Part shown: positions 875-17,737 of the stretch, one piece after another
How positions within the stretch are numbered: position 1 is the first letter of the stretch
How the letters are laid out: every line of letters starts with the position of its first letter
Assembly: GCF_044324875.1 (NCBI RefSeq)
Contig: NZ_CP172186.1
DNA: 64,000 nt
Strand: one strand, 5' to 3'
Source: Escherichia coli
GTDB lineage: Bacteria; Pseudomonadota; Gammaproteobacteria; Enterobacterales; Enterobacteriaceae
The notes under the pieces: model-generated
Databases searched by the model: none
Told to the model about the DNA's origin: nothing
Seen by the model: the letters and a program-made list of their open reading frames with translations, nothing else
Position numbers and translations under genes: made by a program

Positions 875-1222
875 TTATATGCGGATTCCAGCGCGTTCCG
901 TTCGTTTCGGGTGCTTCCAGTTGATACCTTCAAGAAGCATGGATAACTGAGCCGGAGTAAGGTGCACCTTGCCGTCACGGGTGACTGGCCAGACGAAGCG
1001 GCCCCGCTCCAGGCGTTTGGTGAAGAGGCACAGTCCGTCACTGTCAGCCCACAACACTTTTATCTGGTCACCCCGGCGTCCGCGGAAGATGAACAGGTGT
1101 CCGGAGAACGGGTCATCCTTCAGGACGTTCTGAACTTTTGATGCCAGGCCGTTAAAGCCATTTCGCATATCGGTGATACCTGCAACCAGCCAGATACGCG
1201 AACCTGCAGGGAGAGATATCAT
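875..1222 (-). CDS. tnpB: IS66-family TnpB (orf2)
   Basis: 115 aa, about 75 percent identical to the TnpB at 8107-8454 ([17 protein letters not shown] motif). Confidence 0.9.
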   Translation of the reverse strand: MISLPAGSRIWLVAGITDMRNGFNGLASKVQNVLKDDPFSGHLFIFRGRRGDQIKVLWADSDGLCLFTKRLERGRFVWPVTRDGKVHLTPAQLSMLLEGINWKHPKRTERAGIRI

Positions 1223-1899
1223 CAGTGGCTGCTCCCTTTTATTTCGCGGATAAGTGTCTGTAATAACGCCGGCGTCAGTTTACCTTTAAGCCTGAGAGTT
1301 CCGGCCGGCAGAACCAGCTCACAACACAGACTGTCGGACGGTGTATTTATCTGCTCTGGTTCCTGTGCGGGGGCCGGGATTTTATTATCCGGCTCCGGCG
1401 TTAACGTCACGGGAAGCAGTGCCGGCATATTTTTTCCGGAAGGCAGCAGGCCACCTTTCCGGTATTGATGGCGCCAGTTGAAGAGCAGGTTATCGTTGAT
1501 TCCGTTTTCCCGGGCGATCTGCGCCACACAGGCTCCGGGCTGCAGTGACTGCTCCACTAAGGCGATTTTAAACTCATAAGGGAAGTTGGGCCGCCGGGGA
1601 CGTTTTTTTACCACGGGGGCTTCGGATATAACGGTGCTTTCAGGACGTACGACTGGTACCGTGGAAAATTGTCCGTAAAGGCAGGCATCAAGTTCCTGCT
1701 CCGACATGCCTGCGGGCAAAGGCCACGAAAGGCCAGCTCTCCGAAAGCGCACGAACATACTACAAACTGTTGATTTTGGTACACCCAGGCGACGCCCGGC
1801 CACAACCCGGGGTAAATGTTCTTCAAAGTGAAGACGTAAAGCTTCAGTGATCCAGGTCCGGTGTTTCATACGATAGTGTCCATTAAAAATGATGGACAT
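1222..1899 (-). CDS. tnpA: IS66-family TnpA (orf1); start codon uncertain
   Basis: C-terminal half matches IS66 orf1 of second copy (NDNLLFNWRHQYRKG...LRLKGKLTPALLQTLIREIK); upstream part of tracked ORF may be read-through. Confidence 0.75.
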   Translation of the reverse strand: MSIIFNGHYRMKHRTWITEALRLHFEEHLPRVVAGRRLGVPKSTVCSMFVRFRRAGLSWPLPAGMSEQELDACLYGQFSTVPVVRPESTVISEAPVVKKRPRRPNFPYEFKIALVEQSLQPGACVAQIARENGINDNLLFNWRHQYRKGGLLPSGKNMPALLPVTLTPEPDNKIPAPAQEPEQINTPSDSLCCELVLPAGTLRLKGKLTPALLQTLIREIKGSSH

Positions 1900-1952
1900 T
1901 ATTTTTGTAGAGCCGGAGGAAACAGACCAGACGGTTTAAATGAGCCGGTTAC

Positions 1953-2699
1953 GTTTTTCCAGCTCTTACGGTGTATTACCTCCGCTTTGTAAAGGCCATT
2001 GATGCTCTCCGCCATCGCGTTGTCATACGAGTCACCAGTACTTCCTGTTGATGCCAGTAATCCGGCTTCCTTAAGCCGCTGTGTGTAGGCCAGCGATACA
2101 TACTGAGAACCTTTATCACTGTGATGGACTGTGCCGGACGGTCGACGGGCCCATAACGCCTGCTCCAGAGCATCCAGCACGAATGTCGTTTCCATAGACG
2201 ATGAGACCCGCCACCCCACGATGTATCCGGCAAACACATCAATGATGAACGCCACATAGACGACCCCCTGCCATGTGCTGACGTAAGTAAAATCAGCCAC
2301 CCACAACTGGTCAGGACGTTCTGCCACAAACTGACGGTTTACGCGGTCGCCTGCGGCAACGGCTTTCCGGCTGACGGTAGTGCGGACCTTTTTACCCCGG
2401 AGAACACCGGCAAGTCCCATAACCGCCATGAGGCGCGCCACTGTACATCTGGCTACCCTGATTCCTTCCCGTAACAACTGACGCCAGACTTTACGCACAC
2501 CGTATACCTGATGATTCCCATCGTATACGCGCAGTATCTCTTTCTTCAGCCAGTCATCGCGCTGCGCACGGGCACTGCGTTTATAAGGATGATGTCGCTG
2601 TTGCTGACAGTGGTAATACGTTGACGGGGCAATATGTAGTTCACTGCATACCGGTCCGACCCCGTACAGCTTACGCAGCTTATCCAGCAGTGGCATCAC
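1953..2699 (-). pseudogene. IS3-family transposase OrfB, C-terminally truncated
   Basis: About 95 percent identical to orfB at 15556-16401 up to ...EVIHRKSWKN, then reads into IS66 sequence (tracked ORF 1899-2699). Confidence 0.8.
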
Positions 2700-3022
2700 T
2701 TTTTCCAGAGGCGGTCGAACTCCGCCTTCGCAAAATAAGCGGAAGCCTGGCGAAGGATATCGTTACTGCGGCGCAGTTCACGATTTTCACGTTCCAGCTC
2801 TTTCAGACGCTGACGTTCAGCGGTGGTGAGCCCGCCATCACCGCCTCCGGTATCCCGCTCATGCTGGCGTACCCAGACACGCAGAGTCTCCGGTGTACAG
2901 CCAATCTTTGGGGCAATGGAACAAATTGCCGCCCACTGTGAGTCATATTCGCCCTGACTTTCCAGAACCATACGAATCGCCCTCTGACGGACTTCGGGGG
3001 AAAAACGAGTATTTTTAGTCAT
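2696..3022 (-). CDS. IS3-family transposase OrfA (HTH)
   Basis: 108 aa [15 protein letters not shown]..., near-identical to 15208-15534 and 58909-59235. Confidence 0.9.
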
Positions 3023-3076
3023 TCTGTTTACCTCTTTCTCAGGGAGTTTAGTCTCCAGGATTCCCGGGGCGGTTCA

Positions 3077-3631
3077 GTTTATGAAAACATATCATCATTC
3101 ATTCGAGATGTTTTTATACACTCTGAAGAAAATGATCTCATTCCTGATTTTCTTAATTCGACATTCGTTGACTGGGATGATGCAAAGTACATGACAGAAA
3201 GTATGAGCTTCGTACTGGAAGAAGTATCAGTTATCCTGAACAAAGAGAATACCGAAACAACAGAAATTTCTTATGATCAAAACCTGTATTCACTTCTGGC
3301 TCATCATAATCATATTACCCCTTGCTGGAATAATGTTATTTCTCTACTGAGTGAAGATGCGTCACTTGCTGGTGATACTTTTTGTAAGTGGCTTAATATT
3401 AATTATTCTTTATTGCCAAATGACTCGTTGCCTTTGACTGATGTTCAGTTCTCGCAATTACTTATTAAGGCTGTTACATCACCTCATATCAGTAAAGAAG
3501 CGTTAATAGCGATAACCATGGCATTTAGGATAACTCTTATTAATGTACCAGAAAACTTACCACTGAATAATGCTGCGGTACTAATCAAGCAAAAATGGCT
3601 GGCACCAACCAGTACTGTGTTTGAACAACTT
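3077..3631 (+). pseudogene. Internal fragment of a low-GC gene of unknown function, truncated 5' by IS629-like and 3' by IS1
   Basis: Frame of tracked ORF 3191-3658 is open upstream to the IS boundary at 3076 and its stop codon lies inside the IS1 IR; AT-rich composition. Confidence 0.4.
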
Positions 3632-3686
3632 GGTGATGCTGCCAACTTACTGATTTAGTGTATGATGGTGTTTTTGAGGTGCTCCA

Positions 3687-3962
3687 GTGGCTTCTGTTTC
3701 TATCAGCTGTCCCTCCTGTTCAGCTACTGACGGGGTGGTGCGTAACGGCAAAAGCACCGCCGGACATCAGCGCTATCTCTGCTCTCACTGCCGTAAAACA
3801 TGGCAACTGCAGTTCACTTACACCGCTTCTCAACCCGGTACGCACCAGAAAATCATTGATATGGCCATGAATGGCGTTGGATGCCGGGCAACTGCCCGCA
3901 TTATGGGCGTTGGCCTCAACACGATTTTACGTCACTTAAAAAACTCAGGCCGCAGTCGGTAA
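3687..3962 (+). CDS. insA: IS1 InsA
   Basis: 91 aa [40 protein letters not shown]... Confidence 0.95.
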
Positions 3963-4384
3963 CCTCGCGCATACAGCCGGGCAGTGACGTCATCGTCTGC
4001 GCGGAAATGGACGAACAGTGGGGCTATGTCGGGGCTAAATCGCGCCAGCGCTGGCTGTTTTACGCGTATGACAGGCTCCGGAAGACGGTTGTTGCGCACG
4101 TATTCTGTGAACGCACGATGGCGACGCTGGGGCGTCTTATGAGCCTGCTGTCACCCTTTGACGTGGTGATATGGATGACGGATGGCTGGCCGCTGTATGA
4201 ATCCCGCCTGAAGGGAAAGCTGCACGTAATCAGCAAGCGATATACGCAGCGAATTGAGCGGCATAACCTGAATCTGAGGCAGCACCTGGCACGGCTGGGA
4301 CGGAAGTCGCTGTCGTTCTCAAAATCGGTGGAGCTGCATGACAAAGTCATCGGGCATTATCTGAACATAAAACACTATCAATAA
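3881..4384 (+). CDS. insB: IS1 InsB (expressed as InsAB' by frameshift)
   Basis: 167 aa, overlapping insA in -1 frame. Confidence 0.9.
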
Positions 4385-4399
4385 GTTGGAGTCATTACC

Positions 4400-4542
4400 T
4401 AACAAGAGATAAAATCCCCTTCTATATGCTTTCAAAAAATAGTATAAATCGTTATTCTGATATGAGTGATTTTATTCAATCCAATAATGAAACAACTCCA
4501 GAAAAGGCATTTATTAAAGAAGTTATGGGAACAGGGGACTGA
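4400..4542 (+). pseudogene. 3' remnant (about 46 codons) of the gene that preceded mcbG, truncated by IS1
   Basis: Frame is open from the IS1 junction to a TGA 4 nt before the mcbG-like start (...PEKAFIKEVMGTGD*). Confidence 0.35.
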
Positions 4543-4545
4543 CAC

Positions 4546-5109
4546 ATGGATATAATAGAAAAAAGAATCACAAAACGACACCTCAGTGAAAGTAAATTAT
4601 CAGGTGTAAATTATTACAATTGTATATTTGAACGAATACAGCTTGACAACTTTAACTTTCGCGATTGTGAGTTCGAAAAATGTCGCTTCGTAAACTGCTC
4701 AATAAAGAATTTAAAACTTAATTTTTTTAAACTTATTGACTGTGAATTCAAAGATTGTTTATTACAAGGAGTAAATGCAGCAGACATTATGTTTCCCTGT
4801 ACTTTTTCTCTTGTAAATTGTGATTTGAGATTTGTTGATTTTATTAGTTTACGGTTACAGAAATCTGTTTTTTTATCCAGTCGCTTCCGTGATTGTTTAT
4901 TTGAGGAAACAGACCTTCGTAAATCTGATTTTACTGGTTCGGAGTTTAATAATACAGAGTTCAGACATTCTGATTTGTCTCACTGTGATTTTTCAATGAC
5001 AGAAGGTCTCGATATAAATCCTGAGATAAACAGGATCTTATCTATAAAGATACCACAGGAAGCAGGTTTAAAAATACTTAAACGAATGGGAGTGGTTGTA
5101 GGGGGATGA
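4546..5109 (+). CDS. mcbG: Pentapeptide-repeat protein, McbG-like (microcin B17 immunity / gyrase protection; Qnr-like fold)
   Basis: 187 aa; MDIIEK... N-terminus and LGVVVGG C-terminus as in Qnr/McbG proteins; tandem pentapeptide repeats (CEFEKCRFVNCSIKNLKL...); AT-rich. Confidence 0.6.
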   Translation: MDIIEKRITKRHLSESKLSGVNYYNCIFERIQLDNFNFRDCEFEKCRFVNCSIKNLKLNFFKLIDCEFKDCLLQGVNAADIMFPCTFSLVNCDLRFVDFISLRLQKSVFLSSRFRDCLFEETDLRKSDFTGSEFNNTEFRHSDLSHCDFSMTEGLDINPEINRILSIKIPQEAGLKILKRMGVVVGG

Positions 5110-5511
5110 GGTGAGTAGACCCGCCGGTTGCCCGGACGGGCCCCTCCTCAGAACCGGACCTGCGGAACTACCGCATCCGGCTCCCGACAGATCAGTGTCC
5201 CCACACATATTTCAGAAAGAATGGAACATTGACTGAGTTCTCCATCTCGATGGGTATCCCAGCATTTTGAGAATCAGATCCAGCTTTTCTCATGTCATTG
5301 GGTGTGGGGTTTGAAGCCCAATGGAGCGGAAACGTACGCTAAGAAGCTAACTATATGATTTTAAGTCAATAAAGTCGTGGCGTTGTTAGGCAGGTTTACG
5401 TTGATTTGATTACCGAGTTTATTAACACTGAAAGTCCCTGAAACCGCATGGCTACTGGCATTGACGGGAAGAGTAAACAAAACCCTCGTTTTCTTTACTC
5501 ACCTCTTCTGC

Positions 5512-5814
5512 TCAAAAAATGAACTTAGCGTACGATCTCGTACGGTTGGGCCTCAAACCCCTTGTATCAATAGATTCAGTCAATGATCGGAAAGCAATGC
5601 CACGAATTTTCAGGTCTTCAATAATTCGGAGCAAATGTGAGAGTGAACGACCAAGTCGATCCAGTTTCCAGACTATCAGTACATCACCTTCGCGAAGTTC
5701 AGCGAGACAGGACTTAAGTCCCGGGCGATTATCACGAGCACCTGAAGCATGATCCTGATGTAAATGCCGGGGATCCACTCCGGCAGCAATCAACGCATCA
5801 CGCTGTAAAGCAAC
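5512..5814 (-). pseudogene. Serine recombinase (resolvase/invertase) fragment, N-terminus removed by IS66-family insertion
   Basis: ...YVALQRDAL..SGARDNRPGL...GDVLIVWKLDRLGRSL...SLTESIDT matches Hin/Gin/resolvase catalytic domain; catalytic Ser region absent; premature end. Confidence 0.7.
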
Positions 5815-6500
5815 GTAAGCGTCAACGGAGCACCGTATTGACGCTTATTTATTGGTGAGTACTACGTTCCATGGCAGGAGTTCGTCAACTCGGTTGGAAA
5901 GCCATTCCGGCAGTACGCTCAGAATATGGCGCAGATACGCTTCCGGATCGATACCGTTCAGACGGCAGGTGCCGATCAGCCCGTACAGCAGTGCACCACG
6001 CTCGCCGCCGTGATCGCTACCGAAGAACACGTAATTTTTCTTTCCGAGACAGACTGCACGAAGCGCTCTTTCCGCTGTGTTATTGTCCGCCTCCGCCAGA
6101 CCGTCATCACAGAAGTTGCACAACGCAACCCAGTGCTTCCTGATATACCGGAACGCATCTCTCAGACGGCATTTTTTCGATAACGTGTGTTCTTTCTCCT
6201 GCATCAGCTTATACAGGGAAGTCAGTAGCGGTTTACTCTGCATTTGCCTGACCGCCAGGCGTTCAGACACCGGCAACCCGCGTATTTCGTGCTCAATGGC
6301 GTACAGTTCGGGCATCAGGATTATGCCGCTTTCCTCACAGAGAGGAATTATCGTAGCATTCCCCGTAGTGATGCCATGTGGCAACTGGCTGTCCAGCTGG
6401 GAAATAGTGGATTTATCAGGCCGCCGAAACTTACTCACGCTGATACACGTATTCGTATAGAGCCCTTTTTTAACGCTGAAAATGAATACGACTGACATCG
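5815..6500 (-). mobile_element. IS66-family element, 3' fragment with terminal IR
   Basis: Terminal GTAAGCGTCAACGGAGCACCGTATTGACG at 5815 resembles the IS66 IR; contains tnpC C-terminal coding region. Confidence 0.7.
5845..6498 (-). pseudogene. IS66-family TnpC, C-terminal fragment
   Basis: ...[54 protein letters not shown]... aligns with C-terminus of TnpC at 8504-10042. Confidence 0.8.
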
Positions 6501-6510
6501 CAAAATAGTG

Positions 6511-6535
6511 GTAAGGCCGTCGGGGGCGGCCTTAC
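6511..6535 (-). terminator. Stem-loop downstream of vapC copy 1
   Basis: GTAAGGCCG-tcggggg-CGGCCTTAC, followed on the minus strand by a T-rich run. Confidence 0.45.
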
Positions 6536-6539
6536 TCCT

Positions 6540-6956
6540 TTATCCTGCCCAGTCTTCCAGTACCAGTCCAGGCACCCGCTCAAACTCTCTCACATTATTC
6601 GTCACCAGTATTGCCCCGGTGGCGATGGCGTGCCCGGCGATCGCCGTGTCGTTCGGACCGATCGGCGTGCCGGCGAGGCGCAGCGCCACCTTAACCTCCG
6701 TGGTTGCATCCACCGCAGCGCGATCCCAGGGCAGGATGGCATCGAGACGGGCGCAGAACGCGTCAACCAGCTGCACGTGGCGTGGCGATGCCTTTGGACC
6801 GGTGGCGCCGAAGCGCATCTCGGAGTAGGTGATGGCCGAGACCACTATACGGTGACCGCGCAGCACCGCCTGCTCCAGATTCTTAAGCACTGCTTCAGGC
6901 TGCTCGCGCATGATGAACGAGCAGATGTTCGTGTCGAGCATATAGATCTTGTTCAC
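6540..6956 (-). CDS. vapC: VapC toxin (PIN-domain RNase), copy 1
   Basis: 138 aa MNKIYMLDTNICSFIM...; overlaps vapB by 4 nt. Confidence 0.9.
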   Translation of the reverse strand: MNKIYMLDTNICSFIMREQPEAVLKNLEQAVLRGHRIVVSAITYSEMRFGATGPKASPRHVQLVDAFCARLDAILPWDRAAVDATTEVKVALRLAGTPIGPNDTAIAGHAIATGAILVTNNVREFERVPGLVLEDWAG

Positions 6957-7183
6957 AGGTTAAATCGTCCTTCGTCGCAGACAACGTCCTCGCGTTCCGT
7001 CATAAAGCCCGGATCGGCCTTTTCTAGCTCCAGGAATGAGCTCCAGCTCGGGCGGAGGGGACGCAGAATGATTCTGTCCCCTTCCCGTACAATCTCCAGC
7101 TCACTCACCCCCTCAAAATCCAGATCGCGGGGCAGACGGATCGCGCGGTTATTGCCATTTTTGAAAATAGATACGGTTCTCAT
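6953..7183 (-). CDS. vapB: VapB antitoxin (AbrB/SpoVT-type), copy 1
   Basis: 76 aa MRTVSIFKNGNNRAIRLPRDLDFEG... Confidence 0.9.
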   Translation of the reverse strand: MRTVSIFKNGNNRAIRLPRDLDFEGVSELEIVREGDRIILRPLRPSWSSFLELEKADPGFMTEREDVVCDEGRFNL

Positions 7184-7222
7184 GTCTTCCTCCTGGCAAG
7201 ATGGCTTTTATATATGTTTAGT

Positions 7223-7301
7223 ATATGCAGATGTGATACATATGTATATGTTATAGATATGCAGATGTGTGAGATATGCGTATGCCTGTCATATGCAGAT
7301 G
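7223..7301. promoter_or_regulatory. Three direct ATATGCAGATG repeats at exact 34-bp spacing upstream of vapB copy 1
   Basis: Repeats start at 7223, 7257, 7291; an inverted copy (TATCTGCATG) follows at about 7324. Confidence 0.4.
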
Positions 7302-7708
7302 CCAAACATATGGATATGCATGGTATCTGCATGTTTCTCTCTTTTTTCACCGGGATCCGAAAAATATCAGTCACGGATCTTCCTCTCCCCCACACAACAC
7401 CACCTCCTGTAAGTACAACATGTAGTACTTCCTTCGGCTGCTCATGACACTATATGTTGTGTTATTTCCCTGACTTGTGATGCGCCACGCAGGGGCGGAA
7501 AACAGCGATATGATGATTTCCTCATCGTGTAGACTGGCCCCCTGAATCTCCAGACAACCAGTATCACTTATTTAAGTGATAGTCTTAATACTAGTTTTTA
7601 GACTAGTCATTGGAGAGCAGATGATTGATGTCTTAGGGTAAGCGTACAGCCTGAACCGTCTGGTCAGAATCTGACGAATTAGACAAAGTGGTGTCCACCA
7701 AATAAGTA

Positions 7709-8110
7709 GTGGGAACCAAAGTGTCAGATATGCAGAAAAATGTGACTCCCGGCAGGCGAAAAGGCTGCCCTAATTATCCTCCCGAATTTAAACAGCAGCT
7801 CGTTGCTGCCTCCTGTGAACCCGGGATATCCATCTCAAAACTTGCTCTTGAAAATGGCATTAACGCCAATCTGTTGTTCAAATGGCGACAACAATGGCGC
7901 GAGGGAAAGCTGCTATTACCTTCTTCAGAGAGCCCCCAGCTACTTCCTGTGACTCTCGATGCAGCTGCCGAACAGCCAGAATCGCTCGCAGAGGACCCGG
8001 AAACCCTCAGTATCAGCTGTGAGGTAACGTTCCGGCACGGGACGCTCCGCTTCAATGGCAATGTCAGCGAAAAGCTCCTGACTCTGCTGATACAGGAACT
8101 GAAGCGATGA
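7709..8110 (+). CDS. tnpA: IS66-family TnpA (orf1)
   Basis: 133 aa, HTH-containing. Confidence 0.9.
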   Translation: MGTKVSDMQKNVTPGRRKGCPNYPPEFKQQLVAASCEPGISISKLALENGINANLLFKWRQQWREGKLLLPSSESPQLLPVTLDAAAEQPESLAEDPETLSISCEVTFRHGTLRFNGNVSEKLLTLLIQELKR

Positions 8111-8454
8111 TCCCTTTACCTTCCGGGACCAAAATTTGGCTGGTTGCCGGTATCACCGATATGAGAAATGGCTTCAACGGCCTGGCTGCGAAAGTACAGA
8201 CGGCGCTGAAAGACGATCCCATGTCCGGCCATGTTTTCATTTTCCGGGGCCGCAGCGGCAGTCAGGTTAAACTGCTGTGGTCCACCGGTGACGGACTGTG
8301 CCTCCTGACCAAACGGCTGGAGCGTGGGCGCTTCGCCTGGCCGTCAGCCCGTGATGGCAAAGTGTTCCTTACACAGGCGCAGCTGGCGATGCTGCTGGAA
8401 GGTATCGACTGGCGACAGCCTAAGCGGCTGCTGACCTCCCTGACCATGCTGTAA
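8107..8454 (+). CDS. tnpB: IS66-family TnpB (orf2)
   Basis: 115 aa; overlaps tnpA stop. Confidence 0.9.
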
Positions 8455-8503
8455 ATCTCTTTATCCTGGTTGTCACAGAATAAGCCCGGTAAAATACGGG
8501 CTT

Positions 8504-10042
8504 ATGAACGACATCTCTTCTGACGACATCTTCCTGCTGAAACAGCGCCTGGCCGAACAGGAAGCGCTGATCCACGCCCTGCAGGAAAAGCTGAGCAACC
8601 GGGAGCGCGAAATAGACCATCTGCAGGCGCAGCTGGATAAACTCCGCCGGATGAACTTCGGCAGTCGTTCCGAAAAAGTCTCCCGCCGTATCGCACAAAT
8701 GGAAGCCGATCTGAACCAGCTTCAGAAAGAGAGCGATACGCTGACTGGTAGGGTGTATGACCCGGCAGTACAGCGTCCGTTGCGTCAGACCCGCATCCGT
8801 AAGCCGTTCCCTGAATCACTACCCCGTGACGAAAAGCGACTGTTGCCTGCGGCGCCGTGCTGCCCGAACTGCGGCGGTTCACTGAGCTATCTGGGCGAGG
8901 ATACCGCCGAACAGCTGGAGTTGATGCGTAGCGCCTTCCGGGTTATCCGGACGGTACGGGAAAAACATGCCTGTACTCAGTGCGATGCCATCGTGCAGGC
9001 ACCTGCACCTTCGCGGCCCATCGAGCGGGGTATCGCCGGACCGGGGCTGCTGGCCCGCGTGCTGACCTCGAAGTATGCAGAGCACACCCCGCTGTATCGC
9101 CAGTCAGAAATATACGGCCGGCAAGGTGTGGAGCTGAGCCGTTCACTGCTGTCGGGCTGGGTGGATGCATGCTGCCGGCTGCTGTCTCCGCTGGAAGAGG
9201 CGCTTCATGGCTATGTCATGACTGACGGCAAACTCCATGCCGATGATACCCCGGTCCAGGTACTGATGCCGGGTAATAAGAAGACGAAGACCGGGCGGTT
9301 GTGGGCGTATGTTCGTGATGACCGCAATGCCGGGTCAGCGTTGGCACCTGCAGTGTGGTTCGCTTACAGCCCGGACAGAAAAGGCATCCATCCGCAGACT
9401 CATCTTGCTTGCTTCAGCGGTGTGCTGCAAGCGGATGCGTACGCCGGGTTCAACGAGCTGTATCGCAATGGTGGGATAACGGAAGCTGCCTGCTGGGCTC
9501 ATGCCCGCCGAAAGATCCACGATGTGCACGTCCGCATCCCGTCAGCACTGACGGAAGAAGCCCTGGAGCAGATCGGTCAGTTGTACGCCATAGAGGCGGA
9601 TATAAGGGGAATGCCGGCAGAGCAGCGGCTTGCTGAACGTCAGCGAAAAACGAAACCGCTGTTGAAATCCCTGGAAAGCTGGTTGCGTGAAAAGATGAAG
9701 ACCCTGTCGCGACACTCAGAGTTGGCGAAGGCGTTCGCGTACGCACTTAACCAGTGGCCGGCACTGACGTACTATGCGAACGATGGCTGGGTGGAAATCG
9801 ACAACAACATCGCTGAAAATGCCCTGCGGGCGGTAAGTCTGGGTCGTAAAAACTTCCTGTTCTTCGGCTCTGGCCATGGTGGTGAGCGGGGAGCGCTACT
9901 GTACAGCCTGATAGGGACGTGCAAACTGAATGACGTGGATCCAGAAAGCTACCTTCGCCATGTGCTTGGCGTCATAGCAGACTGGCCGGTCAACCGGGTC
10001 AGCGAACTGCTTCCGTGGCGCATAGCACTGCCAGCTGAATAA
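8504..10042 (+). CDS. tnpC: IS66-family transposase TnpC
   Basis: 512 aa; N-terminal leucine zipper, CxxC...C zinc motif, DDE core. Confidence 0.95.
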
Positions 10043-10087
10043 CACATCCCCGTCAATACGGCCCTCGCTGTACGCTTACGTCTTAGG

Positions 10088-10436
10088 ACCGGAGAAACGC
10101 AGACGGCGTACCACACAGGAAAAGATCGCAATTGTTCAGCAGAGCTTTGAACCGGGGATGACGGTCTCCCTCGTTGCCCGGCAACATGGTGTAGCAGCCA
10201 GCCAGTTATTTCTCTGGCGTAAGCAATACCAGGAAGGAAGTCTTACTGCTGTCGCCGCCGGAGAACAGGTTGTTCCTGCCTCTGAACTTGCTGCCGCCAT
10301 GAAGCAGATTAAAGAACTCCAGCGCCTGCTCGGCAAGAAAACGATGGAAAATGAACTCCTCAAAGAAGCCGTTGAATATGGACGGGCAAAAAAGTGGATA
10401 GCGCACGCGCCCTTATTGCCCGGGGATGGGGAGTAA
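10088..10436 (+). pseudogene. insC: IS2 insC (OrfA), split by the IS66 insertion after codon 6
   Basis: ATGATTGATGTCTTAGGG at 7621-7638 encodes MIDVLG; remainder [18 protein letters not shown]... resumes at 10088. Confidence 0.85.
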
Positions 10437-11299
10437 GCTTAGTCAGCCGTTGTCTCCGGGTGTCGCGTGCGCAGTTGCACGTCATTCTCAGACGAACCGA
10501 TGACTGGATGGATGGCCGCCGCAGTCGTCACACTGATGATACGGATGTGCTTCTCCGTATACACCATGTTATCGGAGAGCTGCCAACGTATGGTTATCGT
10601 CGGGTATGGGCGCTGCTTCGCAGACAGGCAGAACTTGATGGTATGCCTGCGATCAATGCCAAACGTGTTTACCGGATCATGCGCCAGAATGCGCTGTTGC
10701 TTGAGCGAAAACCTGCTGTACCGCCATCGAAACGGGCACATACAGGCAGAGTGGCTGTGAAAGAAAGTAATCAGCGATGGTGCTCTGACGGGTTCGAGTT
10801 CCGCTGTGATAACGGAGAAAAACTGCGAGTCACGTTCGCGCTGGACTGCTGTGACCGTGAGGCACTGCACTGGGCGGTCACTACGGGCGGCTTCAACAGT
10901 GAAACAGTACAGGACGTCATGCTGGGAGCGGTGGAACGCCGCTTCGGCAACGAGCTTCCGGCGTCTCCAGTAGAGTGGCTGACGGATAATGGTTCATGCT
11001 ACCGGGCTAATGAAACACGGCAGTTTGCCCGGATGTTGGGGCTTGAACCGAAGAGCACGGCGGTGCGGAGTCCGGAGAGTAACGGCATAGCAGAGAGCTT
11101 CGTGAAAACGATAAAGCGTGACTACATCAGTGTCATGCCCAAACCAGACGGGTTAACGGCAGCAAAGAACCTTGCAGAGGCGTTCGAGCATTATAACGAA
11201 TGGCATCCGCATAGTGCACTGGGTTATCGCTCGCCACGGGAATATCTACGGCAGCAAGCCAGTAATGGGTTAAGTGATAACAGGTGTCTGGAAATATAG
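10394..11299 (+). CDS. insD: IS2 InsD (OrfB, DDE transposase)
   Basis: 301 aa [21 protein letters not shown]... Confidence 0.9.
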
Positions 11300-11563
11300 G
11301 GGCAAATCCAAAAAATACTTAGGAATAATTTATGTAAAACAGGTTGTCGTCTTCATGATTTAAACGCAGTACATATATATACTCTATAATAAATACAGGG
11401 AGTATCACGAGACGTCTGGATAAGAGGAATAACCAGAATAAATTGGTAAGGAATAAAGACACTTATTTCTATTGAGAAAAAACATTTATCCTGATGTGAT
11501 TAGTATCAATGAAATAATGTGCTTGTATGGTTGATAAAAATGCATCACTAAAGAAAAAACAGT

Positions 11564-14500
11564 ATGAATAAGAATATACGAATTTTACAGTTTCTGGTCA
11601 GTATACTTTATTCTGTGCAGTCTCATTTTTCTGGTGCGCAAACAATACAACTGAATGGTAATGGTATACCTGAAAGTATAACCAGGAGTATTACAGGTGT
11701 TGATGGAAACGCGGCGCTTAATATCAGCGTGCCGTATAAAACAAGTTATACTCAAAATATACTATCTGTTGAAAGCAGTATTAACATCAAAGGAGGAACA
11801 AGCAATACATCAATCGGTGGTGCAGGTGTCTACGGTGAAAACTTTACGCTAAATAATAATGGTAGTGTTTGGGGAGGAGATGGATATAATGGTGGAGTTG
11901 CTGTTAGTGGCAACAAAATATCTATAAACAATTACAGAAATGTATATGGGGGTAATGGTCTTGGTGGCTCAGGAAGTAGCGGAGGTGCAGGGTTAAGCGG
12001 GGATGATATTATAGTTGATAATTACAGAAGTATATACGGAGGTGATGATCTAGGTGGGACAGGTGGTTCCGGTGTAACCGGGAGCAATATTACAGTGCAT
12101 AATTCCGGAGGAATATGGGGTGGTAATGGCGTAAACGGTGGTGATGGTATTAATGGTAGTAATCTTTTCATTACTAACGACAACATGATATCTGGAGGAT
12201 ATGGAATAAAACAAGGGGGAGATGCTATTTCTGGAAATCAAATCACTTTGAATAATAACGGTATTGTTCAGGGGGGATATGGCCCCGACGGTAGTTGCTC
12301 TGTTTATGGAGAAGATATCCATATTAATAATCATGGTAATATTTCAGGCTCATATAATAGCCAAAAAGATGCTTATAACACATCAATAATTTTTTCTGCT
12401 GGGTATAATTCATTAGATATTTATTCAGATTCTGTGATTAATGGTGATATTAAACTAGCTAGTATACCTGTTAATGGTACAAATGAATTAATTATTAAAA
12501 ACATCAATAACGCAACAGCAATTAATGGTGGGCTAATGATTGGGAATGGCTCGTCTGTTTATCTGTCAAGCAAGAACATCATTTTTAACGGAAATATAAG
12601 TATTGATGAAGACGCATCTATGAACCTGTCTGCAGGAAATGCTAATGTTCACGCAAATACTATTACATTAAAAAGTGATTCATGGCTTAATATAGACACA
12701 TCAATTAAGAACTGGACTCAGGACTATTACACATTATTGTCGTCAGACACAGGTATCTCGATCGCTGATAATAGTCACATTGTACAATACAATGTATTAC
12801 TGACAGAAGGTGCTGAAAGTTATGTTTATACGTCTTTAAATGACGACGATAACAAACTGATATCCATGCTGAGATGGAATAATACAAAAGGGATGGGATA
12901 TGGAACCTTTAATATAGAAAAAGATGCCACTCTGAACATAGGAGTTTCTCTTTCCGATAATCTTTCACCTTTATTATATGATGGCTGGGACGGCAAAAGT
13001 CTGACAAAATCAGGTAATGGTACTCTTATACTTTCTGCAACAAACAACTATACAGGAAATACAGAGGTTAAATCTGGCGTATTAATTCTTGCTGCACCTG
13101 ATGCTCTTGGTCGGACTGAGTATTTATATTTATCCCGTGGCGCAGAACTGGATATGAATGGGTATCCTCAGACAATAAGCAAACTACTGACGGCTGCAGG
13201 CTCTGTGCTGAACATTCATGGCGGAAGCCTGATACTGAATAATGGAGGAGAATCTGCAGGTACTATTGCAGGGGATGGTTCTCTGAACATAAATGGGGGA
13301 ATGCTTGATATAACGGGTAATAATCGTAATTTTTCCGGTGTTTTTACCGTGAATAAGGGGGCTCAGTTGGCTGTATCCACGGCTGATAATCTGGGGACAG
13401 CCTTTGTTGATAACTATGGCACATTAACTCTGAACAGTACATCAGCATGGCAGCTTACCAACAATATCAGTGGTTATGGTAATGTTCGCAAGACGGGAGC
13501 AGGTGCACTGAACATTAGCGATAACGCAAAATGGACCGGGATGACAGATATTATTCAGGGGACATTGATTCTGGGTAACGCAGATTCACCGGTGATGCTC
13601 GGCAGTAACCAGGTCATTGTTGAAGAGCAGGGCAAACTCTCCGGGTTTGGGGGCGTTGCAGGAAATCTGAGCAATAGTGGTATAGTCGATCTCACTACAT
13701 ATATGCCGGGTAATATACTGACTGTCGGAGGGAATTACACTGGCAGAAATGGACTTATTCTCCTCCAGACAGAAACAGGTGGTGACAATTCGAAAACAGA
13801 TCGTCTGGTGATTAAAGGTAATGCCAGTGGCCGTACCCGTGTCGCTGTTACTCAGGCCGGTGGTACTGGTGCAGAGACACTTAATGGGATTGAAGTGATT
13901 CACGTCAGTGGCAATGCTGATAATGCTGAATTCATTCAGACGGAACGTATTACAGCCGGAGCTTATGATTACATACTGAAACGTGGTCAGGGGATTAACA
14001 GCACTAACTGGTATCTGATTAGCAGAAAAGACATTCCTGTACCACAACCTGAAGCTGTACCGGAAAACCATGATAATAATTTGCGTCCTGAGGCAGGTAG
14101 CTATGTTGCCAGTATTGCTGCTGCAAATAATCTGTTTGTAACGAATCTGTATGAACGACAGGGACAGGAGTTGTATATCAGCCACATGACAGGAGAAGAA
14201 AATGAAGCAGGTATCTGGATGTATAATAAAGGAAAACATAATCGCTGGCGTGACAACAGTAGTCAGCTGAGAACCCGGGGGAATAGCTACGTTGTGTTAA
14301 TAGGGGGAGATATAGCTCAGTGGAGCCTGAATGGTACCGATCGCTGGCATACAGGTATGATGGCTGGCTATGGTCATAATCATAACAGTACGAATGCCCT
14401 GAGCACCGGATACCATTCGGAAGGAAGAATGAATGGATACACTGCGGGTCTTTATGCAACATGGTATGCCAATGATGAAACACACAATGGTTCTTATCTT

Positions 14501-15061
14501 GATAGCTGGCTGCAATACAGCTGGTTTGATAATCATATAAATGGAGAACGGCTGCCTGCTGAGTCATGGAAGTCAAAAGGGTTTACGGTATCTCTGGAAG
14601 CAGGATATTCATGGAAGGCTGGAGAGTTTACCGACAATTACAAGGGAAGTCATGAATGGTATGTTCAGCCGCAGCTTCAGGTTGTCCGGATGAATGTAAA
14701 ATCAGACAGACATCGTGAAAGTAACGGAACCAGTATTGAAAATACCGGTAACGGAAATATTCTCACTCGCCTGGGAGCGAGAACATGGTTTGTCAGTAAA
14801 AACGGTAAGAATTCACGGTATGCAGTTCCTCTCAGGCCATTTGTAGAAGTAAACTGGCTGCACAATAGTCGTGTTTTCGGCACCAGTATGAATGGTGTAA
14901 GTATTTACCAGGATGGGGCGCATAATATCGGAGAAATAAATGGTGGTGTTGTGGGAGTGATAACTCCAGAAGTGGTATTGCGGGCTGATGCAGGCATTCA
15001 ACTTGGAGAGCATGGATACCGCAATGCATCTGCTATGTTCGGCGTGGAATATCGTTTCTGA
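11564..15061 (+). CDS. Autotransporter (type Va) adhesin-like protein, AIDA-I/Ag43 type
   Basis: 1165 aa; N-terminal signal peptide; Gly-rich repetitive passenger (GGxGxxGG repeats); C-terminal beta-barrel ending ...FGVEYRF; AT-rich. Confidence 0.8.
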   Translation: MNKNIRILQFLVSILYSVQSHFSGAQTIQLNGNGIPESITRSITGVDGNAALNISVPYKTSYTQNILSVESSINIKGGTSNTSIGGAGVYGENFTLNNNGSVWGGDGYNGGVAVSGNKISINNYRNVYGGNGLGGSGSSGGAGLSGDDIIVDNYRSIYGGDDLGGTGGSGVTGSNITVHNSGGIWGGNGVNGGDGINGSNLFITNDNMISGGYGIKQGGDAISGNQITLNNNGIVQGGYGPDGSCSVYGEDIHINNHGNISGSYNSQKDAYNTSIIFSAGYNSLDIYSDSVINGDIKLASIPVNGTNELIIKNINNATAINGGLMIGNGSSVYLSSKNIIFNGNISIDEDASMNLSAGNANVHANTITLKSDSWLNIDTSIKNWTQDYYTLLSSDTGISIADNSHIVQYNVLLTEGAESYVYTSLNDDDNKLISMLRWNNTKGMGYGTFNIEKDATLNIGVSLSDNLSPLLYDGWDGKSLTKSGNGTLILSATNNYTGNTEVKSGVLILAAPDALGRTEYLYLSRGAELDMNGYPQTISKLLTAAGSVLNIHGGSLILNNGGESAGTIAGDGSLNINGGMLDITGNNRNFSGVFTVNKGAQLAVSTADNLGTAFVDNYGTLTLNSTSAWQLTNNISGYGNVRKTGAGALNISDNAKWTGMTDIIQGTLILGNADSPVMLGSNQVIVEEQGKLSGFGGVAGNLSNSGIVDLTTYMPGNILTVGGNYTGRNGLILLQTETGGDNSKTDRLVIKGNASGRTRVAVTQAGGTGAETLNGIEVIHVSGNADNAEFIQTERITAGAYDYILKRGQGINSTNWYLISRKDIPVPQPEAVPENHDNNLRPEAGSYVASIAAANNLFVTNLYERQGQELYISHMTGEENEAGIWMYNKGKHNRWRDNSSQLRTRGNSYVVLIGGDIAQWSLNGTDRWHTGMMAGYGHNHNSTNALSTGYHSEGRMNGYTAGLYATWYANDETHNGSYLDSWLQYSWFDNHINGERLPAESWKSKGFTVSLEAGYSWKAGEFTDNYKGSHEWYVQPQLQVVRMNVKSDRHRESNGTSIENTGNGNILTRLGARTWFVSKNGKNSRYAVPLRPFVEVNWLHNSRVFGTSMNGVSIYQDGAHNIGEINGGVVGVITPEVVLRADAGIQLGEHGYRNASAMFGVEYRF

Positions 15062-15207
15062 TGACTCTTTACATTATGAACATTCTTCGCAATATATTGT
15101 TTATAAGGCATGGTTAGCTGGGGGAAGCGGAAAATATGAAGACAGTAATGATTTGAACCGCCCCGGAAATCCTGGAGACTAAACTTCCTGAGAAAGATGT
15201 AAACAGG

Positions 15208-15534
15208 ATGACTAAAAATACTCGTTTTTCCCCCGAAGTCCGTCAACGGGCAGTTCGTATGGTTCTGGAAAGCCAGGGCGAATATGACTCACAATGGGCG
15301 GCAATTTGTTCCATTGCTCCAAAGATTGGCTGTACGCCAGAGACCCTGCGTGTCTGGGTTCGCCAGCATGAGCGGGATACCGGGGGCGGTGATGGTGGGC
15401 TCACCACCGCTGAACGTCAGCGTCTGAAAGAGCTGGAACGCGAAAATCGTGAACTGCGCCGCAGTAACGATATCCTTCGCCAGGCTTCCGCTTATTTTGC
15501 GAAGGCGGAGTTCGACCGCCTCTGGAAAAAATAA
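15208..15534 (+). CDS. IS3-family transposase OrfA
   Basis: 108 aa [26 protein letters not shown]... Confidence 0.9.
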
Positions 15535-15555
15535 TGCCACTGCTGGATAAGCTGC

Positions 15556-16401
15556 GTGAGCTGCAGTGAGCTGCATATTGCCCCGTCAACGTATTACCAC
15601 TGTCAGCAACAGCAGCATCATCCTGATAAACGCAGCGCCCGTGCGCAGCGTGATGACTGGCTGAAGAAAGAGATACAGCGCGTATACGATGAAAATCACC
15701 AGGTGTACGGTGTGCGTAAAGTCTGGCGTCAGTTGTTACGGGAAGGTATCAGAGTGGCCAGATGCACTGTGACACGTCTTATGGCGGTTATGGGTTTTGC
15801 CGATGTTCTCCGGGGTAAAAAGGTCCGCATTACCGTCAGCCGGAAAGCCGTTGCCGCAGGCGACCGCGTAAACCGTCATTTCGTGGCAGAACGTCCTGAC
15901 CAGCTGTGGGTGGCTGATTTTACTTACGTCAGCACATGGCAGGGCTTTGTTTATGTGGCGTTCATCATTGATGTGTTTGCCGGATACATCGTGGGATGGC
16001 GGGTCTCCTCGTCCATGGAAACGACATTCGTGCTGGATGCACTGGAGCAGGCGTTGTGGGCCCGTCGTCCATCTGGCACCATCCATCACAGCGATAAAGG
16101 CTCTCAGTATGTATCGCTGGCCTACACGCAGCGGCTTAAGGAAGTCGGATTACTGGCATCAACAGGGAGCACAGGCGACTCGTATGACAACGCGATGGCG
16201 GAGAGCATCAATGGTCTTTACAAGGCGGAGGTAATACACCGTAAGAGCTGGAAAAACCGGACAGAAGTGGAGCTGGCTACACTCACGTGGGTGGACTGGT
16301 ATAACAATCGACGATTGCTGGAAAGGCTGGGCCATACTCCCCCGGCAGAAGCAGAAAAAGCTTATTATGCTTCCATCGGAAACAATGATCTGGCAGCCTG
16401 A
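15556..16401 (+). CDS. IS3-family transposase OrfB (DDE; made as OrfAB fusion by -1 frameshift)
   Basis: 281 aa; tracked start is an alternative codon downstream of the frameshift window. Confidence 0.85.
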   Translation: MSCSELHIAPSTYYHCQQQQHHPDKRSARAQRDDWLKKEIQRVYDENHQVYGVRKVWRQLLREGIRVARCTVTRLMAVMGFADVLRGKKVRITVSRKAVAAGDRVNRHFVAERPDQLWVADFTYVSTWQGFVYVAFIIDVFAGYIVGWRVSSSMETTFVLDALEQALWARRPSGTIHHSDKGSQYVSLAYTQRLKEVGLLASTGSTGDSYDNAMAESINGLYKAEVIHRKSWKNRTEVELATLTWVDWYNNRRLLERLGHTPPAEAEKAYYASIGNNDLAA

Positions 16402-16493
16402 GTTCACAGACAAAACATTCTCCAGGAAACCCGGGGCGGTTCAATATGGATACCAGCTGTTCACTTCCAGAGCGGGCTGTTACCCGCTCTGCG

Positions 16494-17726
16494 TCATGTT
16501 GCCGCCAGCGGGCGACAGATCGCCCGCAGGGCGACGGCGCTGCACAGCGGAAACAGCGCCAGCAGAAGCCAGGGATAAACCGCCTGCGGCGACGGAATGA
16601 GCGCCTGGTCAAGTAAATGACCGAGCAGTAAATTCCCGGCTAACACCGCGCACCCTCCTGCGGTGGCGAGCGCTCCGTAGTGGGCGCCCAGCGTCGACTC
16701 CTCGGCGAACAGCGGGATCAGATCCTTGGCTGCGGGCACTAACAGCATCTGGCCGAGGGTGAGCAGCGTGACAAAACCAGCCGCCGGCATTAACCGCAGC
16801 CAACTTTCGGCGGGTGGGGCGGCGGCGAATAACGCCACGCTGGCAAAGGAAGCCGACAGCAGCAGAAAGCCCACCGGCAGGATGCGCACGGCGCCCATTC
16901 GCCGGGCGAAGCGGGCGAGAGGGAGCTGGAGGGTGATAATCAACAGCGAGGCCAGCATAAAGAGCGGCGCCAGATCCTGCTCGCGGCCGCCGGAACGTTG
17001 GATCTCCACCGGCAGAGCGAGGTAGAGTTGGTTGTAGCTCAACAGCCATGAGCTGTAGGCGAGAATAAACGCGACAAAGCGCGGCTGGCGCAAAGGCGTC
17101 CACCATGGGACTCGTCTGCGCGTTGTTGTCGTGTGCCCGTCGGCGGGCAGACCGAAAAAGAGCACCGCCAGCGCCAGAAGAAATATTCCCGCGCCGGCGA
17201 GGGCGATATGTCGAAAGCCGATCCCGCTCAGCACGCCTCCGGCCACCGGGCCGATCACCGCTCCCAGTTCACCGCATACCGCAAACAGCGCAAACCACTC
17301 GGCGCGGCTGCGTTTCCCGTTGGCCTGGCTGTGGGTACCGGCCCGCGCCAGCAGGGCCTCTATCGACGGGGAGAACAGGGCGCCGCCGACGCCGGTCAGG
17401 CAGGCGCCAAGGATAATGGCCCACAGCGACGCCCCGCACGCCAGCAGGAGAAAACCGGCGACGCGAACGACGCAGCCGGCGAGAATGATCGCCTTAGCGC
17501 CATAGCGGTCGGCCAGCGTCCCGCCGAGGATAAACATCCCCTGTTGGGAGAAGGTACGCAGCCCGAGGATCAGGCCGATAAGTCCGCCTGAGAGCAGCAT
17601 GTCGTCGCGCAGGAAGAGGGCGAGGAAAGGTACGACCGCGTAAAAGCCAATATTAAAAACGAACTGGCTTCCCAGTAACACCGGAGGCCAGAGGGTTGCC
17701 GCAGGGCGCAGGGAGAAAAGAGGCAT
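16494..17726 (-). CDS. MFS transporter
   Basis: 12-TM-like hydrophobic profile; ATG at 17726 chosen (tracked ORF extends to 17816 and overlaps the ATPase gene). Confidence 0.7.
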   Translation of the reverse strand: MPLFSLRPAATLWPPVLLGSQFVFNIGFYAVVPFLALFLRDDMLLSGGLIGLILGLRTFSQQGMFILGGTLADRYGAKAIILAGCVVRVAGFLLLACGASLWAIILGACLTGVGGALFSPSIEALLARAGTHSQANGKRSRAEWFALFAVCGELGAVIGPVAGGVLSGIGFRHIALAGAGIFLLALAVLFFGLPADGHTTTTRRRVPWWTPLRQPRFVAFILAYSSWLLSYNQLYLALPVEIQRSGGREQDLAPLFMLASLLIITLQLPLARFARRMGAVRILPVGFLLLSASFASVALFAAAPPAESWLRLMPAAGFVTLLTLGQMLLVPAAKDLIPLFAEESTLGAHYGALATAGGCAVLAGNLLLGHLLDQALIPSPQAVYPWLLLALFPLCSAVALRAICRPLAAT

Positions 17727-17737
17727 ATCCGCCCAAC

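Follow-up and report, generated by a model that had tools for sequence, protein, structure and literature searches.

An IS2 copy without a target-site duplication upstream of aatA is an inherited scar of an IS-associated rearrangement

Why does one of two IS2 copies on a single stretch of Escherichia coli DNA lack the 5-bp target-site duplication of a simple insertion? The window (the whole 64,000-nucleotide stretch of contig NZ_CP172186.1 analysed here) holds a copy 1 flanked by TCGTG and AAAAA and a copy 2 flanked by AAGAG on both sides, as an earlier note on this DNA had correctly read from the letters. The relevant features are as follows.

6540-7183, minus strand: vapC (6540-6956) and vapB (6953-7183), an F-plasmid-type toxin-antitoxin pair with PIN and MazE/AbrB-type antitoxin domains.
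7353-7380, no strand: probable rfsF-type recombination core, an inverted repeat GGATCCG ... CGGATC with variable spacer.
7370-7529, plus strand: relic of the rfsF-to-ccdA intergenic region, 160 bp, ending at IS2; last 5 bp TCGTG (7525-7529).
7530-7637, plus strand: left arm of IS2 copy 1 (IS2 positions 1-108), with IRL and, from the ATG at 7621, the opening 5.7 codons of orfA.
7638-10079, plus strand: ISEc8 (IS66 family, 2442 bp) within IS2 orfA; termini GTAAGCG...CGCTTAC.
10080-11310, plus strand: right part of IS2 copy 1 (positions 109-1331), starting with the second GTCTTAGG and containing orfB (10394-11299) and IRR.
11311-11563, plus strand: native aatA upstream region, ending at IS2; first 5 bp AAAAA (11311-11315).
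11564-15061, plus strand: aatA (APEC autotransporter adhesin A), a 3,498-bp ORF of 1165 aa.
61063-62393, minus strand: IS2 copy 2, 1331 bp, with AAGAG at 61058-61062 and 62394-62398.

Copy 1 (7530-11310, plus strand) spans 3781 bp, made up of 108 bp of IS2, the 2442-bp ISEc8, 8 bp of duplicated target and 1223 bp of IS2; minus ISEc8 and one copy of its duplication, 108 + 1223 gives exactly 1331 bp of IS2. In its observation on this copy the earlier note makes no reference to the ISEc8 interruption. I set the IS2 boundaries by copy 2, K-12 IS2A (1331 bp, same termini) and three more complete copies on pCh101, the closest relative. The tips of copy 1, TAGACTGG from 7530 and ...CAAATCCA up to 11310, fit the IS2 repeats exactly (IRL TAGACTGGCC..., IRR ...GGGGCAAATCCA), and it differs from K-12 IS2A by 29 mismatches in 1331 (97.8% identity), compared with 51 (96.2% identity) for copy 2. 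Its orfB carries rve, rve_3 and HTH_21 domains of the DDE transposase type, and its orfA is present, though ISEc8 interrupts it at codon 6. TCGTG matches AAAAA at none of the five positions. The 15-bp flanks, gatttcctcatcgtg and aaaaatacttaggaa, share no 4-mer, so boundary shifts of a few bases create no repeat, and none occurs at any nearby offset; redrawn boundaries that reveal a 5-bp repeat, the outcome named in the earlier note as fatal to its observation, were thus looked for and not found. Since a duplication is a property of the insertion event and not of the element, copy 1 still counts as IS2.

The inserted element is ISEc8 by its size, its termini, its three ORFs (tnpA 7709-8110, tnpB 8107-8454 and tnpC 8504-10042; 133, 115 and 512 aa), which carry IS66 transposase domains, and its 8-bp target duplication, GTCTTAGG, at 7630-7637 and 10080-10087. 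RefSeq labels identical copies in related records 'IS66-like element ISEc8 family transposase', and pCh101 holds a second ISEc8, 99.9% identical, at another locus. With orfA broken at codon 6, copy 1 is unable to make its own transposase, which favours host recombination for events after ISEc8 arrived. Matches in pSCZP1 and pHNAH968-1 looked like the IS2::ISEc8 composite at other loci, but ISEc8 and IS2 turned out to lie apart there, and nothing indicates that the composite transposes as a unit.

A 5-bp match arises by chance with a probability of about 1/1024, so the AAGAG duplication of copy 2 is taken as real. The three complete IS2 copies of pCh101 each have their own duplication (CTGTT, CAAGA and CTCTT/CTATT), and GTATC flanks the IS2 of pPK8217-139kb that lies at +191 upstream of aatA. 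The CTCTT/CTATT pair, at the pCh101 homologue of copy 2, is a duplication with a single-base change. Given normal duplications around copy 2, the three pCh101 copies and the +191 copy, it is copy 1 that is the exception. The simple insertions (copy 2, K-12 IS2A and the +191 copy) and copy 1 all comprise 1331 bp with the same termini and 96-98% identity; simple insertions such as copy 2 and the +191 copy have 5-bp duplications, whereas copy 1 lacks one and has ISEc8 within its orfA.

What, then, lies on either side? To the left, vapB and vapC are so annotated in pCh101, and many IncF plasmids match the vapB side at 98.8% identity. Homology then switches at 7353-7380: in many plasmids, vapB-side matches stop at 7369/7379 and ccd-side matches start at 7354 or 7368-7373, while homology to pAPEC-O1-ColBM starts at 7368. 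rfsF lies between vagCD/vapBC and resD and is an exchange point (PMC9412624, PMC8004404); by position, inverted repeat and clustered homology breakpoints, this core is probably an rfsF site. The following 160 bp align with uninterrupted sites in p113Kb, pRHB39-C20_2, pO157 and pSA31IncI1, which run on as GTACACTTCCGG... toward ccdA. In more than 2000 plasmids the left flank continues as ...CCTCA(G/T)CGTG followed directly by GTACACTTCCGG..., leading to ccdAB-resD or a resD-like integrase. To judge by these alignments, the 160 bp are a relic of the conserved F-type rfsF-ccdA region, cut exactly at the IS2 tip. The earlier note had copy 1 separating vapBC from the autotransporter island: an IS2 does stand at the join, although it is not alone responsible, as homology breaks a second time at the probable rfsF, 160 bp to its left.

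To the right, the autotransporter ORF has autotransporter beta-domain, autochaperone, PATR and pertactin domains. Over 7368-13500 (6.1 kb, which takes in the first 1.9 kb of the ORF) the window shows 99.9% identity to pAPEC-O1-ColBM; that plasmid has an ORF of the same 3,498-bp length beside eitABCD. Tsh (Tsh/Hbp) is a protein of about 1377 aa. I rejected tsh as the identity of this gene: the ORF encodes 1165 aa, has eitABCD as its neighbour in pAPEC-O1-ColBM and fits the published 3,498-bp aatA, named in PMC2944236. This side is indeed AT-rich, as had been claimed (35-47% GC over 11500-15000, versus 55-61% in the IS elements and vapC). The flank that the window has upstream of aatA is carried by 227 plasmids, only 12 of which have IS2 at the point of copy 1. 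In other plasmids the sequence continues upstream as ...TCTCTGG followed by AAAAATACTTAGG..., and the uninterrupted ...TCTCTGGAAAAATACTTAGG... is present in L013, L010 and L011 and, with minor differences, in L009 and L007. The aatA upstream segment is thus truncated exactly at the IRR tip, and the comparison with related plasmids that the earlier note proposed does yield uninterrupted versions of both sites. On sequence grounds, copy 1 is a genuine IS2 with flanks from different ancestral loci.

Nor was the join made in this plasmid. The junction of IRR with AAAAA and aatA occurs in 12 PLSDB plasmids, with at least three different left flanks. Only seven of the 12, all with ISEc8, share the window's left junction of rfsF relic and IRL: pAPEC-O1-ColBM, pCh101 and five more. 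On the same IRR junction, a cytochrome b562 flank (...ATCTGC up to IRL) is found in pSCZP1 without ISEc8 and in pLH50-c-A with ISEc8, and a flank ending ...AGCTTT in pEc673-2. A constant IRR junction with several IRL flanks marks the IRL side as the variable one. The two junctions of copy 1 are therefore inherited and old. Window positions 1953-21797 are 99.8% identical to pCh101, compared with 93-97% for the rest of the backbone. From 7368 onward pAPEC-O1-ColBM (NC_009837.1) has the same rfsF relic, IS2::ISEc8 and aatA, 99.9% identical, whereas left of the probable rfsF it has its own, different sequence in place of the vapBC pair.

The IS2 copies of this plasmid family, compared by haplotype, are visibly recombinant. 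In pCh101 the cytochrome b562-IRL junction lies on a second, inverted, truncated IS2 about 15.8 kb from the homologue of copy 1, so that junctions found on one IS2 in pSCZP1 and pLH50-c-A are split over two copies. The cytochrome b562-linked IS2 copies of pSCZP1 and pCh101 agree in a divergent haplotype on the left; in pLH50-c-A, whose two flanks are those of pSCZP1, the IS2 instead has the common haplotype plus ISEc8, with rare variants kept at about positions 897 and 916. A simple inversion linking pCh101 and pLH50-c-A fits poorly, as the predicted rfsF-IS2 junction is absent from pLH50-c-A, and the SNP patterns are the opposite of the single-crossover prediction. I also rejected copy 1 as an A-B-A chimera, a reading suggested by the K-12 IS2A comparison alone, since K-12, once ten more IS2 copies are added, turns out to be the one that deviates in the right half; copy 1 has no chimeric switch point and follows the common plasmid IS2 haplotype throughout.

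The missing duplication is best read as a scar left by one or more rearrangements that followed insertion, and recombination between IS2 copies, to which I give a probability of about one in two, is the preferred mechanism. The identity and truncation of both flanks, how old and widespread the junctions are, and the lack of cognate junctions are observed; the mechanism and the following order of events I infer. An IS2 would have been placed directly upstream of aatA with its IRR against AAAAATACTT, the older, conserved junction, and ISEc8 would then have entered the orfA of this aatA-linked copy. Later the DNA on the IRL side would have been swapped, most likely by RecA-type homologous recombination with another IS2, one that had inserted at TCGTG between rfsF and ccdA on an F-type plasmid; the two copies may have shared a molecule or belonged to different plasmids in the same cell. 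Neither the reciprocal product nor the stretch that first separated the two sites would have been retained, and the block of rfsF relic, IS2::ISEc8 and aatA passed to ColBM plasmids of the pAPEC-O1-ColBM type and to the IncK/I-type hybrid of the window. Under this scheme the original insertion at aatA would read ...TCTCTGGAAAAA, IS2, AAAAATACTT..., and that at rfsF-ccdA ...CATCGTG, IS2, TCGTGGTACAC....

Such partners were sought widely. No IS2 with AAAAA against IRL or with IRR against TCGTG exists in the window or in pCh101, the closest complete replicon; a search of both for the missing halves of the two loci returned only the backbone's intact vapBC-rfsF-resD-like locus and an IS1. Chimeric BLAST queries (IS2-IRR joined to TCGTG-GTACAC..., and ...CTGGAAAAA joined to IS2-IRL) gave no spanning match, and hence no reciprocal junction, in PLSDB (72,556 plasmids) or 5,426 complete E. 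coli genomes. Two-piece matches were rejected as reciprocal junctions, being a remnant of IS2 that immediately precedes an intact rfsF (pCFSAN083829_2) and an IS2 at +84 of the aatA upstream region. Two exact-pattern scans, one of metagenome contigs for AAAAA-IRL and one of genome contigs for IRR-TCGTG, were also empty. The cognate half-site that the earlier note expected beside other IS2 copies thus did not appear in any collection searched, and for this reason recombination is not separated with certainty from deletion. All three IRL-flank classes lack an AAAAA duplication, so the site beside aatA is only a candidate for the place where this IS2 first inserted. These absences, like the lack of a chimeric switch point in copy 1, count against recombination.

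The main rival, possible though less probable than recombination, is a transposase-mediated adjacent deletion or intramolecular transposition, in which an IS2 end, or the IRR-IRL junction of a tandem dimer or circle, attacks TCGTG or AAAAA in the same molecule; the DNA in between drops out, and what remains is a single IS2 that keeps one of its former flanks, gains a new one and shows no duplication. In favour of this, both truncations coincide with the IS2 tips to the base, and the absence of a reciprocal junction from all collections searched is as expected if the DNA was lost as a circle. The window and pLH50-c-A have near-identical IS2::ISEc8 bodies (4 differences) with different IRL flanks, which would confine a crossover to the 108-bp left arm, and to the first 31 bp for pLH50-c-A versus pSCZP1. 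Such tracts are short for RecA, and the pattern looks more as if something had happened precisely at the IS end; this counts against recombination. Another IS2 allele in the same aatA upstream region, at +84, is missing 134 bp beside its IRR in pLAO3, while in pB27_2 its IRR adjoins unrelated sequence, and IS2 does use a reactive minicircle junction for insertion (PMC3299598). However, copy-out-paste-in via the minicircle normally yields simple insertions with duplications, and IRL is donor-inactive in the first step (PMC3299598), so events on the IRR side would be more expected, whereas here it is the IRL side that varies; moreover, copy 1 has no intact orfA and would need transposase in trans. 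An extension of this idea, for which I would give long odds, is that the IRL tip of the aatA-linked IS2 may be a recurrent transposase-dependent docking point, with the transposase-defective IS2::ISEc8-aatA block moved in trans by other IS2 copies. If so, targeted IS2-end events and not host recombination would move the block between replicons, which would explain both the varied IRL flanks of identical IS2::ISEc8 and the absent reciprocal junctions.

It is also unlikely, if slightly less so, that IS2::ISEc8, aatA and the downstream IS3-family element moved as a unit between replicons, as a composite-transposon-like block or by recombination at flanking IS copies or the nearby rfsF, the IS2 ends then adjoining whatever DNA the recipient offered. 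IS elements do lie on both sides of aatA (IS2 upstream; an IS3-family repeat of about 1.1 kb, 15152-16257, downstream), variable aatA flanks that contain mobile elements are reported in PMC2944236, and both the tract of near-identity to pCh101 and the breakpoint 160 bp left of IS2 agree with block movement. It leaves unexplained, however, why the breaks coincide exactly with the ends of the element, the left one with the IRL tip within the rfsF-ccdA spacer and that in the aatA upstream region with IRR, and different IS families at two ends cannot work as one transposon; such transfer accounts better for the spread of the block than for its origin. A simple insertion whose duplication never formed or was mutated away is effectively refuted: it is a general possibility, and one pCh101 duplication does carry a changed base, but here the flanks differ at 5/5 positions and come from loci contiguous in no record examined, with ccdA or a resD-like gene beyond the left one and aatA-upstream DNA beyond the right. 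Least credible of all is an assembly artefact; IS2 is multicopy and short-read assemblies can misjoin repeats, but both junctions recur in seven independently assembled complete plasmids from various countries and years, including the Sanger-era pAPEC-O1-ColBM.

The earlier note's proposal of an IS2-mediated deletion or inter-element recombination joining unrelated segments is therefore supported, since both segments end exactly at the IS2 termini, and copy 1 is an ordinary, inherited scar of an IS-associated rearrangement. The literature already has both an interrupted IS2 ahead of aatA and aatA flanks that vary: Dai et al. (2010; PMC2944236) draw the IS2 of pAPEC-O1-ColBM with its interruption and describe three distinct upstream regions for the gene, and the available part makes no mention of target duplications, the identity of ISEc8 or the origin of the left flank. 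The gains here are the identification of the left flank as an F-type rfsF-ccdA relic and of the autotransporter as aatA, with the join traced to a pAPEC-O1-ColBM-type ancestor; their importance beyond plasmid annotation is slight. The AT-rich aatA upstream region took IS2 at at least three sites, three without intact duplications, and these repeated arrivals help explain the many differing aatA flanks in avian E. coli.

How does copy 1 compare with known systems? Classical IS rearrangement scars, left by recombination of two copies or by adjacent deletion, are usually confirmed by reciprocal half-sites, whereas for copy 1 none was found in any collection searched. It shares with them the other features: one complete IS with its neighbours cut at the tips, no duplication, and sister copies that have normal 5-bp repeats.

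A terminus search across the whole window recovered exactly two left and two right IS2 ends. These delimit two copies of the element, which are listed here with the features around them.

6540-7183: vapC and vapB, left of IS2 copy 1, followed by non-coding DNA
7530-11310, + strand: IS2 copy 1, split after IS2 position 108 by ISEc8
7638-10079: ISEc8 (IS66 family, 2442 bp; termini GTAAGCG...CGCTTAC), in codon 6 of IS2 orfA
11564-15061: aatA ORF of 3,498 bp, right of copy 1, with autotransporter, autochaperone, PATR and pertactin domains
61063-62393, - strand: IS2 copy 2, with AAGAG at both ends

The earlier note held that copy 1 lacks a target-site duplication whereas copy 2 has one, and this is correct: copy 1 has TCGTG outside its left tip and AAAAA outside its right. 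Redefining the boundaries of copy 1 yields no matching 5-bp repeat, because the 15 bases on its left and the 15 on its right do not have a single 4-mer in common. Without ISEc8 and one copy of its duplication, copy 1 measures exactly 1331 bp, with identities of 97.8% to K-12 IS2A and 96.5% to copy 2. In pCh101 (NZ_CP127318.1), the closest complete relative in the collections, a separate 5-bp duplication borders each of the three other complete IS2 copies, whereas the homologue of copy 1 is likewise flanked by TCGTG and AAAAA. Thus, the observation holds, and among its sisters copy 1 stands out as the exception. ISEc8 itself is bordered by an 8-bp target duplication, GTCTTAGG (7630-7637 and 10080-10087), and, since it splits orfA at codon 6, copy 1 is transposase-defective and its own transposase was unavailable after that insertion. 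The identical insertion is found in pAPEC-O1-ColBM, pCh101 and pLH50-c-A, but is missing from the aatA-linked IS2 of pSCZP1 and pEc673-2.

Comparison with related plasmids, as the earlier note had advised, recovered uninterrupted versions of both flanking sites. To the right, window 7368-13500, a 6.1-kb stretch that takes in the first 1.9 kb of the ORF, matches pAPEC-O1-ColBM at 99.9% identity; the counterpart ORF there has the same length and adjoins eitABCD. The ORF is therefore aatA, APEC autotransporter adhesin A (PMC2944236), and not tsh. The 400 bp just right of copy 1 occur in 227 plasmids, only 12 of which have IS2 at this exact point. The uninterrupted sequence reads ...GGTCTTCTCTGG AAAAA TACTTAGG... 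in three loci of other plasmids (L013, L010, L011), with minor variants in two more (L009, L007). Therefore AAAAA is native aatA-upstream DNA, and everything further upstream was lost at the IRR (right terminal repeat) tip.

The AT-rich stretch of ~250 bp upstream of aatA (window 11311-11563) is an IS landing zone in other plasmids (loci L017, L011, L010, L008). For example, pPK8217-139kb has an IS2 at +191, bordered by an ordinary GTATC duplication, and pLR-25_1 has ISKpn26 at +7; in pPK8217-139kb the DNA upstream of CTGGAAAAA bears no relation to that of the other plasmids. A copy of IS1 at window 3630-4408 matches, at 98.5% identity, the one that p13C1065T-3 has upstream of aatA. An IS3-family repeat of ~1.1 kb is present in three copies (1953-3076, 15152-16257, 58853-59958; 93-100% identical), one directly downstream of aatA, with ORFs of 108 and 281 aa, and one marking the left end of the stretch in common with pCh101.

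To the left, more than 2000 plasmids contain counterparts of the last 160 bp before IS2 (7370-7529), at 82-97% identity. In the uninterrupted p113Kb, pRHB39-C20_2, pO157 and pSA31IncI1 this stretch runs on through ...CCTCAGCGTG and, past the point of the IS2 tip, GTACACTTCCGG... to ccdAB-resD or a resD-like integrase, so the left flank is an rfsF-to-ccdA intergenic relic that stops at the tip of IRL (the left terminal repeat). The switch in homology to hundreds of plasmids falls at 7354-7379, within the inverted repeat GGATCCG...CGGATC (7353-7380), whose spacer is variable: vapB-side matches end at 7369 or 7379, ccd-side matches begin at 7354 or 7368-7373, and pAPEC-O1-ColBM homology also begins there, at 7368. 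In the literature, rfsF lies between vagCD/vapBC and resD and serves as an exchange point (PMC9412624, PMC8004404); by position and homology switch, the inverted repeat is probably an rfsF site for a ResD-type recombinase. The earlier note had copy 1 separating the vapBC region from an AT-rich autotransporter island. The island is indeed AT-rich (35-47% GC) and vapBC does lie to the left, but it is at this putative rfsF that the vapBC block actually ends and the relic beside IS2 begins. A second vapBC locus, with an rfsF-like site, a hypothetical gene and a resD-like integrase, lies intact at ~26885-29250 and belongs to the IncI/K-type backbone; between its rfsF-like stretch (27468-27867) and window 7130-7529 the identity is 77%. 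Therefore the copy beside IS2 is a second, F-type, truncated one, and the plasmid has a native vapBC system as well as one that came in with the virulence module.

The window's join is inherited. The left junction occurs in seven plasmids of PLSDB, including pAPEC-O1-ColBM, all seven contiguous through ISEc8 to aatA, and the right junction in 12. Five plasmids have the right junction only, and I examined three of them: in pSCZP1 and pLH50-c-A, IRL adjoins a cytochrome b562 gene (...ATCTGC at the tip), with ISEc8 present in pLH50-c-A but not in pSCZP1, while pEc673-2 has a third flank (...AGCTTT) without ISEc8. None of these IRL-flank classes has an AAAAA repeat at the left. Most simply, the IS2-aatA junction would have arisen first and ISEc8 entered afterwards, the IRL-side flank being swapped more than once. 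Window 1953-21797 is 99.8% identical to pCh101, against only 93-97% for the rest of the backbone, and window 1-1953 is a different IS66-family element; apparently the aatA/vapBC module was swapped between related IncI/K-type backbones. Two pairs of direct repeats in the backbone (36710-37009/48947-49246 and 38352-38553/50002-50203; 93-97% identical, ~12 kb apart) suggest a duplicated or paralogous segment.

The proposal that an IS2-mediated deletion or inter-element recombination joined unrelated segments is thus supported, the rfsF-ccdA relic and the aatA-upstream DNA each being cut at an IS2 tip. Homologous recombination between IS2 copies is the reading I favour, at a probability of roughly 0.5, because the IS2 population is visibly recombinant and ISEc8 splits orfA. 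The cytochrome-b562-linked copies of pSCZP1 and pCh101 have a common divergent left-hand haplotype; pLH50-c-A, with the same flanks, has the common haplotype plus ISEc8 and keeps rare right-hand variants. The pCh101 copy in question (45958-47036; L019 8959-10037) is truncated to IS2 positions 1-1079, is the only other irregular copy there, and lies inverted ~15.8 kb from the copy 1 homologue, with the same cytochrome b562-IRL junction as the aatA-linked IS2 of pSCZP1 and pLH50-c-A. The inverted orientation of this truncated copy suggests that IS2 copies once underwent inversion or exchange. The cytochrome b562-IRL and IRR-aatA junctions, which pSCZP1 and pLH50-c-A have on a single IS2, are borne in pCh101 by two inverted copies.

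If two IS2 copies had recombined, whether in direct or inverted orientation, a partner IS2 should bear AAAAA next to its IRL and TCGTG next to its IRR. Copy 2, flanked by AAGAG, is not that partner, no IS2 in pCh101 has either half-site, and neither the window nor pCh101 contains the lost half of either interrupted locus. Chimeric queries for both reciprocal junctions gave no spanning match in 72,556 plasmids or 5,426 complete E. coli genomes, and one exact-pattern scan for AAAAA-IRL in metagenome contigs and one for IRR-TCGTG in genome contigs were both empty; the cognate half-duplication sought beside other IS2 copies was therefore not found in the window, pCh101 or the collections searched. 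This lack of a reciprocal product speaks for a transposase-mediated deletion or other event at an IS2 tip, as do the exactness of both truncations and the near-identical IS2::ISEc8 bodies with different IRL flanks, between which a crossover would need to fall within <=108 bp. So does a different IS2 allele, at +84 of the aatA upstream region: in pLAO3, 134 bp are deleted next to its IRR, and in pB27_2 its IRR flank is unrelated DNA. However, the usual IS2 pathway, through a figure-of-eight and a minicircle, begins with a step in which IRL is inactive as a donor (PMC3299598). This makes IRL-side transposase events less expected, although an abutted IRR-IRL junction could still drive such events. 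I consider this explanation less likely than recombination between IS2 copies. Block transfer as the main cause is improbable, and a decayed duplication or assembly artefact is negligible.

Non-matching flanks around a single IS are what textbooks describe for an IS-associated rearrangement, and the copy 1 finding is ordinary biology. A 2010 report (PMC2944236) already showed that on pAPEC-O1-ColBM the IS2 upstream of aatA is interrupted, and that aatA flanks vary. The present analysis shows in addition that the interrupting element is ISEc8, that the left flank is an F-type rfsF-ccdA relic, that the distributions of the two junctions are nested, and that searches for the reciprocal junctions came up empty.
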